A stretch of 64,000 bases of DNA from Hydrolagus colliei (taxonomy: Eukaryota): the NCBI GenBank assembly GCA_035084275.1, contig CM068761.1, positions 8,556,001 to 8,620,000 on the forward strand, read 5' to 3'. Shown here piece after piece: positions 1,191-35,100 of this stretch. A model generated the notes under the pieces. That model was not told the DNA's origin. It did not search any database and saw only the letters and a list, made by a program, of their open reading frames with translations. Both the position numbers and the translations under genes were made by a program. Within the stretch, counting starts at the first letter, position 1. Each line of letters opens with the position of its first letter.

Positions 1191-1469
1191 AGTTGGGTGT
1201 CTTCAGCATACATATTGGGAATATGCACTGAAACTCATCATCATTGCTGTGATTGGTTTGAAACTGGGATTGGTGGAAGCACGACCAATGCACAACGAAC
1301 GAGAAAGGAATTTAGATGAAATTTCAAAGAGTGAAGGCAGTGCAAGGCAAAGTGAAGGCAGTGCAAGGCAAACAATTTTCCCAAGGAGTATGGCCAAAAC
1401 ATGCTGAAGGCCTTTCCATCACTAGCAATTCGCACCCCCCCAAAAAAAATCCTGCGTACGGCCCTGACC

Positions 1470-2411
1470 CAAGACCTCTTTTAATTCAATAAATACCGGT
1501 GGGGAATCGACTAATCCAACATGTGAGGCGTCCTGTGCCCATATGTCGGGTGATACATAATCAAGAACATGGGTACCTGAGTGATGAATCAGAATAGATT
1601 CCTCCACTCCTTAAACCGCAAAATATTGAATGGAGACCCCGTGGCTGGGGAATTCCTGAATGTTTACGCAGTCTGAGTGAGCCAGTTGAATAGCCTCATA
1701 GACCATTGGGCCTAGTTCGCGAGCTTTATAGGGAGGGGTGGTAGTGATAGTAATATGGGGGCTTGTTGGACCTGTCTGTTTCCAAATATCCTGTGGAATT
1801 GAAACTATTAATGCAACTCCTTTAGTACTCCAAACTTTACCAATTATATATACTAGGTATGATTTACCCAAAAGGGGCTTGTAAAAGTCCTCAAGGGATG
1901 CTGAAGATCCCCCAGAATCATATGCCAATGTAACATGCGCCTTATGAGATTGTAGTTCCAAAGTCCACCATTGAGGGATATTTGTAAGGTACATCATAGG
2001 GGAGGGGGGTGGCAAGATAGAAATCTTCCCGTCATCACACATTAATGAAATGTTAAATGCACACATCAGATCCCTACGCATCAGATTACAACTCATTTGT
2101 TTTGATGATGTCATCACAAACGGATGGTACAGGGAATGGCCCTGCCATGTAACTTTAATGGGTCTAGAAATGGGACAGTTAGTACGTGACCATCCAAATC
2201 CAGCTAATTTTTCCGTACGATTAGATATTGGGATAGCAGGTTGCCTATGAAGGGTTGAGAATGTAGCACCCGAATCCACTAAAAATGGGACTGATTGTCC
2301 CTGTATGTCTAGGACCAGGGTTGGTTCCGATATTAATTTTTGCTCCCCCTCCCCGTGGTCTGGGAGCGGAGAACTTCATGATCCTGGGGAAAAATATTCG
2401 TTCGATTCGCA
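1470..2411 (-). pseudogene. pol: ERV pro-pol 5' part: aspartic protease, putative 2H phosphoesterase, RT N-terminus (truncated)
   Basis: EPTLVLDIQGQSVPFLVDSGA at 2327-2265; NLMRRDLM (GRD motif altered); HVT at 1937 and HIT at 1757; PDIWAQDASHVGLVDSPPVFIELK resembles a class I RT start. In-frame stops at 2376-2378 and 1611-1613. Confidence 0.85.
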
Positions 2412-4331
2412 CTAAGGACCCATTGGGTACTGTCCTGCTCCTTGAGGGTACTGTCCTGCTCCTTGAAGGTACTGTCCTGCTCCTTGAGGACCCTGTGTGG
2501 CGGACTGAGCGTGAGAACCATTATAATGCAAGGGACCAGTGTAACCTCCCCTTGGGACCCATGCCCCTTGTGGTCCCCCTCCTCCCCTTTGTGGACCTCC
2601 TCCTCCCCTTTGTGGACCCCCTCCATAGGAGCCCCCCGAATTGTATGGTTGGGGATAATACGGAGAATAGGAAGGGGGTTGCGGTGGGCCATATGGAACC
2701 TGTCCATAATGATCCTGTGACGGTATATAATTTGGGCATTCATTTTTCCAATGTCCGGGCTGATAACAATTAAAGCAGACCTGCGGTCCTTGAGTTCGAC
2801 TGCCTTTGCCTCTCCTGCTGTACCGACTCCTACCTCTAGTGCCGTTACCGTCCCGTTGTTCGCCATGGTACCCTTGAGGAAACGTAGGCGCGGGATCACC
2901 TATTACTGGAGCCTGAAAGAATTGCTCCTATTTTATCTTGATATTAGGGGCCCGTTCTTCCAAAATGTCCTTCCAGAAATGTTTTACAGCCCTATTAATA
3001 CCCGCCACCGGCAATGTGACCCAATCCAAATCTGTTCTTACCAATGAGGAAACCGAGGACGGCAAACAGTGCATTACAATAGAACAATACTGAGGGGACA
3101 CACCATCACCAGTAAATCCCTGCTCGCCTGAGTGTGTCGAATATACGTCCTTAAATCTATTGAGGAAGTCCTCAGCCGATTCTCCTTTCTTCGGCTTTTG
3201 GTCCAATATTTTACTTATATCAATGCGTTTTTGCAGACATGCAACCAGGGCTCCCCGTATAGCCACTTTTCTGGCTGGATCATCGTTGTTTATCTGGATT
3301 CGTAAGGCTTCGTGATTGTCATGTGCGATCGATTCTTTAAATTTTCTATATTGACCATTTCCCAAACTACTCTGGACAAGACTCCACATATCTCTACTAT
3401 TTCCCCCATACACTTGTTTGACAGACTCAATATGCTCTACGAACCGCGCCGGTTCGGTGTCCTTACTGGGTGCTCCCATTAATAATGACATCATTTCATG
3501 AGGCTTCCAAGGTGAATATACCTCAACTGTGGGATTCTGTCCTTGCTCAGCCTCTCGGGGGTTCGGGACTATCCGCATAGGAGCCATAAGTGGGCATGTC
3601 TCCTCGTCTGACTCGTTCTCCCTCTGATCCCCTTCCTCCACCCTGTCATCATGCTCTTTATTATTATTTTGGCGCTTTTTATCATGTGAACGAGTGCCCT
3701 CCGCCGGGCCCCCTGTATATCTAGTTATCTTTGATTTGGGTTCGACCAATGGGGCTATTGGGGCTGACGGAGATAGTGATTGTATAGTTGAAGGGGGAGC
3801 TACATACGGTGGAGGCACTTCGGGATATATTGGCCGGGGCTGCAGACCCCAGCCGGTCAGTGAATCATCACTGTCGGCACCATCTATGCTCATTTGTGTC
3901 AATTGTGCGCTAAGCATCCTACATTCTAACGCCTTCTGTTCTTCCACCTCTCTCTCTTTCTTCACACATACTTCTTCCCTCAATTTGTCCAGTGGTTTAC
4001 ACACCCCATCACGGGTAATACAAATACCATGTTTCTCCGCGGTGTTCTGCCAACTGGACAATATTTCTTTTGCCTGCTTCTTTTTACTTTCCTCTAACCA
4101 TATTCTCACAATTGGTCGACACTGTTTATATCTGTCTTTCTTCCATACTAACTCGTGTACTCTCGATAACACCGCTACATCATTAGAACCTCCCAGAGGC
4201 CATACAGTTTCTCCTAACTTATTATTTAATTGACCCGAAACTAAACGCAATTCTTTTTGATTCTCCGGCAATAGTTTACACATAGACGTGAGGGGACATG
4301 GCCCCTCAGTTTTATCCACAATATTACCCAT
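2412..4331 (-). pseudogene. gag: ERV Gag polyprotein (~639 codons) with one premature TAG at 2928-2930
   Basis: The ORF 4331-2928 continues in frame past the TAG into CFNCYQPGHWKNEC (CX2CX4HX4C, starting at 2777) and a G/P/Q/Y-rich tail ending at TAG 2414-2412. YPEVPPPY late domain. Confidence 0.9.
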
Positions 4332-4360
4332 ACTTTTTAAATTCTGATACTTTAATAATA

Positions 4361-4464
4361 AAAAATTACAACCTTATGCTTTAAACAAAAATTACAACCT
4401 GATGCTTTAAACAAAAATTACAACCTTATGCTTTAAACTAAAATTACAACCTTATGCTTTAAAC
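4361..4464. repeat. 4 x 26-bp tandem repeat in the ERV 5' leader
   Basis: Unit aaaaattacaaccttatgctttaaac at 4361, 4387, 4413 and 4439; no spacers. Confidence 0.95.
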
Positions 4465-4479
4465 TAAAACTCGTGCACT

Positions 4480-4620
4480 TTTTAACCTGCTGCACCCAGC
4501 TTGTACGCCTTTTTTATTCCGTCGACGGTCCTTACCCCAGTAAGTTTTTAAACCTGCTGCACCCAGCTTGTACGCCTTTTTTATCCCGTTAACGGTCCTT
4601 ACCTCAGTAAGTTTTTAACC
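4480..4620. repeat. 2 x 67-bp tandem repeat in the ERV 5' leader
   Basis: acctgctgcacccagcttgtacgcc recurs at 4485 and 4552. Confidence 0.9.
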
Positions 4621-4836
4621 GAATACACACCCGCCAACCTTTTCTTATCCCGATCTCATTAACGACTATCAGTTACGCATACGGTTGGTGCATCCCCGGA
4701 AGCCTATTACGCAGGTGAAAAACACTGAGAGTATTCAAAAATAGATGATATACTCACTGTGCTGCGCAATTTCACTTAGGCAAAAAAAAAAACAGGGATT
4801 GTCCCGCCGTCTACGCACTTTCTTAATTGTCACGAG

Positions 4837-4854
4837 ATCCCATCCTCGTCGCCA
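4837..4854 (-). other. Primer-binding site, tRNA-Ser(GCU)
   Basis: The + strand reads ATCCCATCCTCGTCGCCA, matching from memory the 3' 18 nt of vertebrate tRNA-Ser(GCT) including CCA; it lies 2 nt from the LTR end. Confidence 0.9.
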
Positions 4855-4856
4855 AA

Positions 4857-5493
4857 TGTGAAACTCCGATTCGTCTCAGTACCTTGGTTGGGGTTTCTGT
4901 TCACAAATATGTGACTCAGGTGTGTGATTCAAACAAGTTTATTCAGCATTCATGAAGCGGTGCACTAGGTTGCTACAGACTCTCGTCCGTCTACTACTAG
5001 TGCACACCAACTAGTAGTATACACACATCTTTATCCAGTTTAAATTCTTTGTCTACCATATATGGGCATGATTATACATTAATTACCTTATTTGGTCAGC
5101 AATATATGGCCTTGCAGTTGTTTTACAGAAACATCATGGCCTAGGAGTTAATGAGATATAGGCCAGCTGCATCTTACAACAAGATAAGCATACAGACATC
5201 ATGGCCTTGGAGTGAATGAGATATAGGCCGGCTACAGCTTACAAGTATAAGATAGCCTAAAAGCAAGATAAGATAACCAAGCCTAGAGCTTTACAATTAT
5301 ATCATAGCCTTGGTGTGCCTGCCAGACACCCTTATGGCCCCTGTTATTCGCATCTTTCTGTAACAGGCGCACAGGTGTCGGCTAGAGGTAAAATCAAAGC
5401 GTACGTACAGGTTTGCAAGTAACTATTATGCGTAGCATAGCAGACGAGCAAATAACCACTATTCGTACATGGCAGACGAGCTGACTTCTCACA
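4857..5493 (-). mobile_element. ERV 5' LTR (637 bp)
   Basis: Termini tgtga...tcaca; minus-strand AATAAA near 4938; internal U3-type direct repeat (acatcatggcc..atgagatataggcc) at ~5131 and ~5197; Ig intron sequence resumes at 5494. Confidence 0.85.
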
Positions 5494-5527
5494 GTGACTT
5501 GTTATCTGTGACTTGTTATTTCTCCAG

Positions 5528-5869
5528 GAACAACCGCAGCTGTTACCCTGACTCAGCCACCGTCCATCTCAACCTCCCCGGGAAACACCGTCAAGATCAC
5601 CTGTACCATGTCCGGAGGCAGCATCGGCAGCTACCACACGAGCTGGTACCAGCAGAAGCCTGGCAGCGCCCCTGTGTTTGTTTGGTATGAGAGCTCCACC
5701 AGAGGTCAGGGGATTCCTGATCGATTCACTGGTTCTGTGGACTCATCGAACATATATTTAACCATCAGCGGTGTGCAGCCGGAGGACGCCGCCGATTATT
5801 ACTGTGGTGCTAAACAAAGCGGCAGCAATCCCCTCATCTTTGGTAAAGGGACCAAGCTGAGTTTGAAAA
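5528..5869 (+). pseudogene. IGLV: Ig lambda/type II germline-joined VJ exon, cluster 1 (open frame; no leader or promoter)
   Basis: Acceptor tttctccag; [44 protein letters not shown]...[24 protein letters not shown]; donor gtaggt; no RSS between V and J. Confidence 0.92.
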
Positions 5870-7984
5870 GTAGGTGATCTTGTTTCAACATTGGATTATT
5901 ATTGTGATCTAATTCTCCTACAGTTTCCACAAAAATAACAAGAACAACGTTGCTCTTGTACAGAGCCTTTCAGGTCAGGAGGACGTCCAAAAATATTCGT
6001 ATGTTTGTCTGTATTCGATATTATTTCACAAGCTATCTGTGATATTCGCACCTGGTTAAAACCCTCGCAATGATAATGTGGAGATCGGAAGTTTTGAAGA
6101 ACCTAAAACACGCCAAACCTGATTTTAATTGAAAATCTGTGAAGAATTTCGACTAATAGTACAGCAAACTAACAAAGGTAAAAAGGTGGAGGCAGGAATG
6201 AAATTATCCAAGAGGAGATAATCGTGGTGATATTTATCTTTAACAGTCTGAAGGACTAAAGATGTCAGATTCACTGTAGCACCGCTTAGAGACCCTGGTA
6301 AAGAATGAGCTACACCAGGGAAAAGAGTTCACACTTCACACCTGAGATTGAAGTTAAATCTCTTTGTGCCAGATTATTTAATTTCTATTTTTACCTGTTA
6401 ACCTCTTTCCCCAGTTTTTCTCCCATCATAAGGAGATCAACAGTATGTTTCCATCTGGTGACTGTCGCTGTTGTATAATGGACCGATTGGTGAGCGGTTC
6501 AATCTCAGAGGGAATCGGATTCCATGAAAATAGTATTCGTCTGTGACTAATTAATCATTTTGAAAAATTAAACTTCTTTGAGAGTGAGGAACATTATATG
6601 TAACTGATAGATGGATGATAGAGTACAACTGTAGGGGACTTTGTTCTCAACATCATTACGCATTCAAATCTAAACCAATATTTTCAGAATAATTCTTATG
6701 TTGCCGTCTGCTCCATGTTATTGCCATAAACAGTTTTTGCATTTTAATATCTGTTTCATTCCAGAGTACTTTTCGAGTTTCTTCAAATATTTTAGTTTCT
6801 CCCCATTACACCCATTACAATACATTTCTATTTTACCATTTATTGCTCACATTTATCTTCAGATTTCCAATTTTACAAACGTATTATTTTCTCCCAATAC
6901 CGTGGTTGATGTCGCTAAGGGCAGCACCATCGGAGAGACTCAATAATACCATGATTGTCATCACAAGTTGTTGCAGTTGGTCAGATGGGAATCATCGTTC
7001 ATTGAAGACAGAGGCTGAGCCCCGGCTCAATCTGGTCAAAATACATTTTCTCTTTGAAAATTAACTTTATTATTTCCCTCAGGCATCATATTAAAGGGAT
7101 TCCGATTTGTGTGTTGTGATTTGTGTATTGTGATTTGTGTATTATGCGCTATTAATTATGAATTAAAATCAGCAAATACGGTGCCAAATAAATTATTGTG
7201 AAATTTGAAATTAATCGGAAGCCCCGCTCAGCAAAGAATCAAAGATTGGATTCTGATTGTGCTCCTGAAGTGTTTTTAAGTGTAGTTGATGAGAAGGAAA
7301 TCATTGATTTTATTCGTATGTTCAGGTTGTTACTCTCAATACAAACCCTATATGATTAATAATGATATTTCACTGTGCTTTCAATCAGCGGCTCCCGCCA
7401 CATACTCCTTGTGTCGCGATGTTTAGTGTCTGGTGTTATTTCTTATGATAGTTGGTATTCATTACTTCAACACAGGACAATTTGTACATGTGTTCACCAC
7501 TGCAAAAAACCATGTAATAAATTGGTCAGTTGAATCCACGAATTCTTGTGGGACAATGCTGTGCGCAATTCGCTGCCGTGTTTCGCCGAAATATGTACAG
7601 ACAATTCACTTCATGGTATATTTTGCGAACATTGAGACGCCGAGAAGACATCAAGAGCACTGTATCAAATGCGAGGATTATTATCATTATTACTGGTAAT
7701 CTCTCATCAGGAAACTATTGATGGTATAATAATGAATGGTGTGTGATGGTGTATGATGACCCCAACACCCATTCTTCCCTCTACATTGCTACACTTTGTC
7801 ACAATTGAAAAGTACCGTCTAAAACGCTGCACAAGAAAACGTTTTACCATTTACAGGAATGTGAAATACTGCATAGCGTTATTTATTGGTGATGCTGAAG
7901 TTTTGTCGTGCTATTGACCAATCGATTGTATATGATATTGGAAAAAAAAAAATTTAAACCTTTGTATCCACATTTTTGTTGCAG

Positions 7985-34755: not shown

Positions 34756-35100
34756 GAACAACCGCAGCTGTTACCCTGACTCAGCCACCGTCCATCTCAA
34801 CATCCCCGGGAAACACCGTCAAGATCACCTGTACCATGTCCGGAGGCAGGATCGGCAGCTACTACACGAGCTGGTACCAGCAGAAGCCTGGCAGCGCCCA
34901 TGTGTTTGTTTGGCGTGATTATGACTCCACCAGAGGTCAGGGGATTCCTGATCGATTCACTGGTTCCGTGGACTCATCGAGCAACGCCATGCATTTAACC
35001 ATCAGCGGTGTGCAGCCGGAGCACGCTGCCGATTACTACTGTGGTGGGTGGGATAGCAACAGCTTCACCTTTGGTAAAGGGACCAAGCTGAGTTTGAAAA
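34756..35100 (+). pseudogene. IGLV: Germline-joined VJ exon, cluster 3
   Basis: Open 345-nt exon; CDR3 CGGWDSNSFTF. Confidence 0.92.

Follow-up and report, generated by a model that had tools for sequence, protein, structure and literature searches.

An epsilon-like provirus beside an immunoglobulin light-chain exon

The window, a 64,000-nucleotide stretch of the Hydrolagus colliei genome, carries on its minus strand a truncated endogenous retrovirus whose surviving parts read in retroviral order (all coordinates below are window positions). The 5′ LTR (TG...CA; 4857–5493) aligns at about 94–95% with each of the two LTRs of a sister provirus (L032/L044, G000:C265). Those two LTRs differ from each other at 1 of 530 sites, and the family of the window's provirus therefore integrated recently. 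The primer-binding site follows at 4837–4854 as an 18-nt exact complement of the 3′ end of the host tRNA-Ser(GCT), for which a search of the host genome returned two genes. The gag gene, with one CCHC zinc knuckle, starts at 4331 and ends at 2376, where a TGA (2378–2376) marks the gag/pro boundary. Beyond it, the open reading frame 2375–1611 encodes a retroviral aspartyl protease with a DSG motif (2046–2327; Pfam RVP over residues 17–110, E = 1.4e-5), followed in the same frame by both H-x-T motifs of a predicted CNPase-type 2H phosphoesterase domain (1578–1985). The first ~30 codons of reverse transcriptase (RT) occupy 1467–1562, and there the provirus is cut off: similarity to the sister provirus ends at 1467, and nothing remains of env, the 3′ LTR or the more distal part of pol.

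Premature TAG stops interrupt gag at 2930–2928 and 2414–2412, and a TAA at 1613–1611 lies inside the 2H domain. With these three premature stops, the copy is a dead remnant that makes nothing. Several other family copies in the genome have kept long open frames. The window LTR is also about 105 bases longer than that of the sister provirus, and short tandem duplications are present in the 5′ leader (4560–4380, minus strand) and in the U3 part of the LTR (5280–5100, minus strand).

The provirus is a fish-type, epsilon-like endogenous retrovirus (ERV) of the WDSV/SSSV/ZFERV kind. Its gag and pro-pol share one frame, a read-through-type stop separates them, and Gag carries a single CCHC knuckle; an MLV-like integrase C-terminus and a TLV-type env are seen in the sister copy only. 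The sister copy also preserves the complete order of protease (RVP, residues 17–110), 2H domain, RT (RVT_1, residues 350–516), RNase H, integrase and env. The initial annotation had placed a putative 2H domain between protease and RT, an order that the sister copy bears out and that the window itself, being almost devoid of RT, displays only in part.

The UGA stop (UGAAGU) together with a predicted GC-rich hairpin on its 3′ side (2320–2378, minus strand) forms a candidate Gag-Pro-Pol read-through signal. All displayed family-1 copies, namely the window and 13 others, have TGA at the gag/pro boundary, and the stop context in the second subfamily is UGAGGC. The hairpin has a fold z of −2.6, and equally good folds arose in 5 of 200 shuffles. 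The accessible part of PMC13517186 attributes UGA read-through sites to SSSV, ZFERV and a frog ERV (this one likewise in the context UGAAGU) and describes epsilonretroviral read-through as never put to the test. The conserved stop and the predicted hairpin thus likely constitute the read-through signal for Gag-Pro-Pol.

The 5′ LTR lies directly beside a host gene segment that is not viral, a germline-joined V-J immunoglobulin light-chain exon (5512–5877, plus strand) in a tandem immunoglobulin cluster, with some 30 bases between the LTR and the splice acceptor (the provirus and the acceptor region together span window 1467–5525). At least six such light-chain clusters, all germline-joined V-J and differing in their CDR3s, are arranged in tandem (5548, 25484, 34776, 47161 and 57221 on the plus strand, and L031:5550–5930), an organization that suggests a cartilaginous fish. 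The V exon beside the provirus shows no octamer within 700 bases upstream, and an octamer is found at three of the four other V exons in the window; the V at 34776 is the other one without a nearby octamer. The viral 3′ half and the host promoter/leader region may have been lost in one deletion, and a single deletion of this kind would leave the immunoglobulin cluster beside the provirus silent.

Extent and conservation of the 2H domain

The domain comprises approximately 136–140 amino acids on the minus strand. Two predicted catalytic motifs stand 60 residues apart, as initially annotated: H-V-T-L-A-Y (1920–1937), with its CAT codon at 1937–1935 in the setting KAHVTLAY, and H-I-T-I (1746–1757), with its CAT codon at 1757–1755 in the setting SPHITITT. 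The stretch KARELGPMV, also recorded at the outset as following the second motif, forms the start of a predicted helix (1683–1724) equivalent to CNPase helix alpha7. The insert had been put at ~110 amino acids with an end at 1680; in fact it measures ~140, with a folded core reaching to ~1578. The last predicted strand (residues 127–136) lies beyond the TAA, and the window's open reading frame therefore lacks part of the domain. Both motifs are present, in keeping with the original description of them as intact, but the premature stops in gag and in the domain leave this copy defective and unable to make the domain.

Paired motifs of this type are not rare. When the domain was shuffled 20,000 times, an H-x-[TS]-hydrophobic pair 55–110 residues apart arose in 3.2% of cases, and the motif pair alone is consequently modest evidence. 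The case for a 2H domain is carried by conservation and fold.

To survey the domain within the host, we searched its own genome and obtained 35 matches among 50 scored candidates, the best 30 of which were compared. These 30 copies fall into two ERV families, one with 77–100% and the other with ~40% identity to the window's domain. The first H-x-T/S motif is present in 29 of 30 copies, the second in 29 of 30 and both in 28, the spacing being always 60 residues; 23 copies carry the domain free of stops. Conservation of the motifs among related ERV copies, on which the initial annotation had made its proposal depend, is thus evident. The insert also occurs in the second family (L020–L030), at ~40% domain identity and with the motifs likewise 60 residues apart.

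Pairwise Nei-Gojobori estimates for nine sister-copy pairs, which are non-independent, gave a domain dN/dS of 0.12–0.21 (0.12–0.14 in the six pairs between subfamilies, 0.16–0.21 in the three within). Corresponding values were 0.07–0.17 for the protease and 0.03–0.12 for the start of RT, the latter after omission of two pairs, L004/L010 (stops and lost register) and L001/L002 (truncation); the window-versus-sister pair held too few changes to be used. This similarity indicates that the domain was under purifying selection like the protease.

Beyond the host genome, a HMMER profile search of 1.84 billion proteins returned 73 matches at E ≤ 0.001, some of them partial. Pfam protease, RT or RNase H domains accompany the match in 23, eight of which have both protease and RT; 48 show no Pfam family at E 1e-4, and P0057 is a clear tRNA_lig_CPD (PF08302) protein of non-retroviral nature. 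Another of the 73, P0062, was set aside as a spurious match to Ig-like repeats. Word-indexed homologue searches gave no match at E ≤ 0.001 among 181 candidates and none among 74, a limit of their sensitivity given the 73 matches from HMMER. The order protease–2H–RT recurs in many homologues, and the domain is widespread in related retroviral Pol proteins. One match, P0010 (892 amino acids), joins a partial 2H domain and RT to a C2H2 zinc-finger array, and is possibly a gene-prediction chimera or a co-opted Pol.

A 56-row alignment was assembled from seven rows of the host's own genome and, of the 73 profile matches, the 49 shorter ones. The first His is found in 48 of 48 ungapped rows and the second in 53 of 56. 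This bears on the proposal that the domain is non-catalytic and serves as an RNA-binding module, as a processing spacer between protease and RT, or as a decoy against host CNPase. In its favor, CNPase of primates blocks lentivirus assembly by binding Gag, and inhibition of HIV-1 assembly by host CNP is cited in the accessible parts of PMC5434554 and PMC7471995; moreover, the second His is lost in 3 of 56 rows. Yet 28 of 30 copies, from two families only ~40% identical, have both His and both Thr/Ser residues, and the His pair recurs across distant Pol proteins, as an active enzyme would lead one to expect. We therefore regard a purely non-catalytic role as very unlikely.

Predicted fold and branch of the 2H superfamily

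To characterize the fold, we predicted the structure of the domain with X at the stop position, which yielded a model of high confidence (mean pLDDT 94.2, pTM 0.86). The model has strands at residues 5–11, 17–23, 42–53, 56–62, 77–82, 117–121 and 127–136 and helices at 29–38 and 88–101. H17 opens the strand 17–23 and H77 the strand 77–82, as is characteristic of the 2H superfamily. Compared with 48,161 representative chains, the model matched mouse CNPase with a Z of 13.9 (rmsd 3.1, 135 aligned residues), followed by drCPDase (6.9), rotavirus VP3 (6.4), plant CPDase (6.2), Acb1 (6.0) and MHV NS2 (5.4); the lowest values given were those of the penguinpox cGAMP phosphodiesterase (PDE) and AKAP18 (4.7 each). 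By their titles, all 12 chains at Z ≥ 5 are 2H proteins, with a topoisomerase at rank 13 printed at 5.0, which is consistent with the two-lobed 2H fold. From the full-length superposition on CNPase, the two His residues would be expected to lie side by side in one active site.

Foldseek placed the model in the same neighborhood: among the 42 matches listed, all were CNPase/RICH except a fungal RNA kinase (6u05; rank 3, E = 2.6e-5). Together with the CNPase superposition, this agrees with the 2H fold that the initial annotation had predicted a structure search would find. Among viral models, the first three ranks went to WEHV1 Q9WHI8 (E = 2.5e-7), Q2VF30_1 and WDSV A4GTG3 (E = 6.2e-6), and the best Acb1 match reached E = 8.4e-3.

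Sequence-level comparisons were fainter and leaned in the same direction. Against PDB sequences, a single-sequence search gave no match and a 14-row profile two chance matches; a further profile search gave 18 weak matches, 17 of them to CNPase/RICH (E = 0.17–1.6). With hhalign, the score was 71% for the host CNPase exon versus 2.4% for a host AKAP7-family protein; host CNPase was recovered as one sequence in two exons. Atlas neighbors at 0.96 include tRNA_lig_CPD clusters, with a recognition score of 2257 that falls slightly below threshold. Pfam matches across the 56 rows were nearly all weak and spread over 2_5_RNA_ligase2 (nine rows), tRNA_lig_CPD (six), LigT (five), CNPase (two of 56, best E = 2.7e-4) and Acb1 (two), and the window protein itself gave a weak tRNA_lig_CPD (PF08302) match (E = 0.23) and no PF05881 match. 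The minimal CNPase-type fold is also shared by stand-alone proteins of ~155 amino acids (BFVD A0A516LHL6 and A0A516LSI7, and Atlas clusters), some clusters of which are mostly annotated as Uroviricota; these may represent a little-studied phage branch.

According to the accessible sections of PMC3290555 and PMC4643303, what chiefly sets CNPase/RICH apart from other 2H enzymes is a helix, alpha7, that comes after the second motif. In CNPase it lines one edge of the active site, holds the nucleophilic water in position and keeps large substrates from entering there; AKAP18 and LigT-like enzymes are without it (PMC3290555, same sections). In our model, the helix 88–101 follows the strand 77–82 and corresponds to alpha7. 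Two further residues shared with host CNPase accompany it. An aromatic residue (Tyr/Phe) at His1+5, the counterpart of the base-stacking Phe235 of mouse CNPase and a Tyr in the window, occurs in 50 of 56 rows. Gly at His2+15 (Gly324 in CNPase; codon 1712–1710 in the window) occurs in 54 of 56, and the exceptions, P0057 and P0072, are the two non-retroviral-looking rows. These features, with the fold comparison, place the domain by prediction in the CNPase/tRNA-ligase-CPD branch of the 2H fold. It is nevertheless not a CNPase gene: protease and RT flank it, there is no N-terminal domain, and PF05881 gives no match. Two residues of the CNPase pocket are not kept: in 44 of 56 rows Lys/Arg takes the place of Val321 (His2+12), and Arg307 (His2−2) mostly gives way to Ala, Val or Ser. 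The substrate may accordingly differ from that of CNPase.

This branch assignment weighs most heavily on the idea that the domain antagonizes second messengers, cutting 2-5A (OAS-RNase L) or 2′,3′-cGAMP (cGAS-STING) after being re-tuned from a CNPase-type ancestor. Retroviral cDNA is a trigger of cGAS, which counts in favor of such a role. The superfamily and the catalytic pair are common to NS2, VP3, Acb1 and the avian poxvirus PDEs, and the basic residue replacing the Val of the CNPase base pocket could bind a further phosphate. Approximately five OAS1_C-bearing genes form a tandem cluster in the host (G000:C28:1.81–1.84 Mb, L035–L038), with one additional match on C1. 2H PDEs have also been recruited against immunity repeatedly (PMC11410667 and PMC10835031, as far as their accessible text goes).

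Against antagonism, the known antagonists and AKAP18 align far less well than CNPase (VP3 6.4, Acb1 6.0, NS2 5.4, penguinpox PDE 4.7 and AKAP18 4.7 versus 13.9), and membership of Pol would imply low amounts of enzyme. Teleosts, which also harbor domain-bearing retroviruses, are not known to have OAS-RNase L. An exon-wise search of the host for the RNase L family, with 14 candidates scored and by an approach that could overlook RNase L, led to two loci, both IRE1; of the OAS/RNase L pathway to which the initial annotation had pointed, the host offers an OAS cluster, and the RNase L side of this search returned only IRE1. In addition, alpha7 blocks large substrates on one side in CNPase (PMC3290555, accessible sections). 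The fold of the CNPase branch and the predicted alpha7 make the 2-5A reading weak, and the initial lean toward an innate-immunity (2-5A/RNase L) antagonist is not supported. The window's copy, moreover, cannot be expressed. We consider antagonism of second messengers unlikely.

Proposed function and comparison with known systems

By analogy with CNPase, we propose that the domain probably hydrolyzes 2′,3′-cyclic phosphates on RNA ends to 3′-OH/2′-phosphate ends through His-water/His-acid chemistry, a reading that we favor with moderate confidence. The second His would activate water and the first would protonate the leaving 3′-oxygen, while the Tyr at His+5 would stack on the base, the product being an RNA end with 3′-OH and 2′-phosphate. 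The domain would be made by UGA read-through as part of Gag-Pro-Pol and packaged into particles, where the protease would probably cut it free. In the particle, the substrates to be "healed" could be packaged RNAs that RNases have left with cyclic-phosphate ends, such as a nicked genome or a clipped primer tRNA. Since replication proceeds in most retroviruses without any domain of this kind, priming cannot in general depend on it. Alternatively, the enzyme might remove cyclic-phosphate ends as danger marks; such RNA ends are described as immune triggers in the accessible part of PMC8406329. Substrates cannot be deduced from a common fold, and evolution has re-tuned that of the 2H enzymes on many occasions (PMC11410667, in its accessible part).

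The same structural evidence would also suit an enzyme that acts, within the infected cell, on free small 2′,3′-cyclic nucleotides (2′,3′-cAMP and kin) or on further metabolites bearing a cyclic phosphate; turnover of 2′,3′-cyclic nucleotides is the activity measured in vitro for vertebrate CNPase (PMC4643303 and PMC3290555, accessible sections). Packaging as a Pol precursor and kinship to tRNA-healing CPDs would instead favor an RNA-end substrate, and the host possesses a CNPase gene of its own, so that we judge free nucleotides an improbable target.

There is also a bolder proposal. The domain would be a fifth Pol enzyme of fish-type retroviruses, derived from a single capture of a vertebrate CNPase ancestor and kept in viruses of cartilaginous and bony fish, where it would erase an immune signal, either cyclic-phosphate RNA ends or cDNA-triggered 2′,3′-cGAMP, with the basic residue in place of Val321. 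We hold this to be unlikely; if true, it would amount to a retroviral nuclease directed against nucleotide-based innate sensing and would make the CNPase type a second 2H branch so recruited, besides the AKAP7/LigT-like one.

The structure narrows the working guess from a "2-5A antagonist" to a predicted cyclic phosphodiesterase of the CNPase type whose pocket is altered. What emerges is a small (~140 amino acids), well-folding predicted enzyme that is under purifying selection in the Pol of many fish retrovirus lineages and whose activity would also be informative about what vertebrate CNPase acts on in nature.

The domain is already in print for fish retroviruses and is not a new kind of discovery; its range now includes two ERV families of Hydrolagus colliei. 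The accessible text of PMC9503650, citing Mazumder 2002, places 2H domains in certain retroviruses, naming a fish retrovirus and WDSV, and that of PMC4977317, citing Basta 2009, counts a CNPase among the proteins that epsilon-like ERVs of ray-finned fish can encode. With the matching WEHV1 and WDSV folds, these reviews support the initial statement that similar inserts occur in fish retroviruses. The domain goes unmentioned in the first part of the elephant-shark ERV paper (PMC4422223), the zebrafish ERV survey (PMC8672886) contains none of the domain terms, and the word "retrovir" is absent from three papers on viral anti-immune PDEs (PMC10835031, PMC11410667 and PMC8406329). A literature search with most subscription journals outside its reach found no assay of a retroviral 2H domain.

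Among known systems, the closest in context are the domains of WDSV and WEHV1, which share the predicted fold but differ by an identity of only ~16% and by the defective state of the window copy. Their source proteins, WEHV1 Q9WHI8 (1317 amino acids) and WDSV A4GTG3 (1159 amino acids), are labelled "envelope polyprotein", and their lengths would fit Pol. In the other homologues, the motifs are mostly 63 residues apart, compared with 60 in the window.

CNPase and goldfish RICH (PDB 2xmi, 1woj and 2i3e; PF05881) resemble the domain in alpha7, the aromatic residue at His1+5, the Gly at His2+15 and the strand pattern between the motifs, whereas they are larger (~216 versus ~140 amino acids), space their motifs more widely (79 versus 60 residues) and share only ~14% identity. 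The CPD of fungal Trl1 and small stand-alone relatives (PF08302; PDB 6u05) are linked to the domain by the Foldseek match, the weak Pfam match and the Atlas neighbors; unlike Trl1, the viral domain has no ligase or kinase partner, and P0057 and P0072 lack the viral-type Gly at His2+15. MHV NS2, the C-terminal domain of VP3 (VP3-CTD), AKAP7, Acb1 and the avian poxvirus PDE belong to the same 2H superfamily with paired His-x-Thr/Ser motifs, and NS2, VP3-CTD, Acb1 and the avian poxvirus PDE are likewise virus-encoded. With Z values of 4.7–6.4, however, MHV NS2, VP3, AKAP18, Acb1 and the poxvirus PDE represent a different branch of the superfamily.
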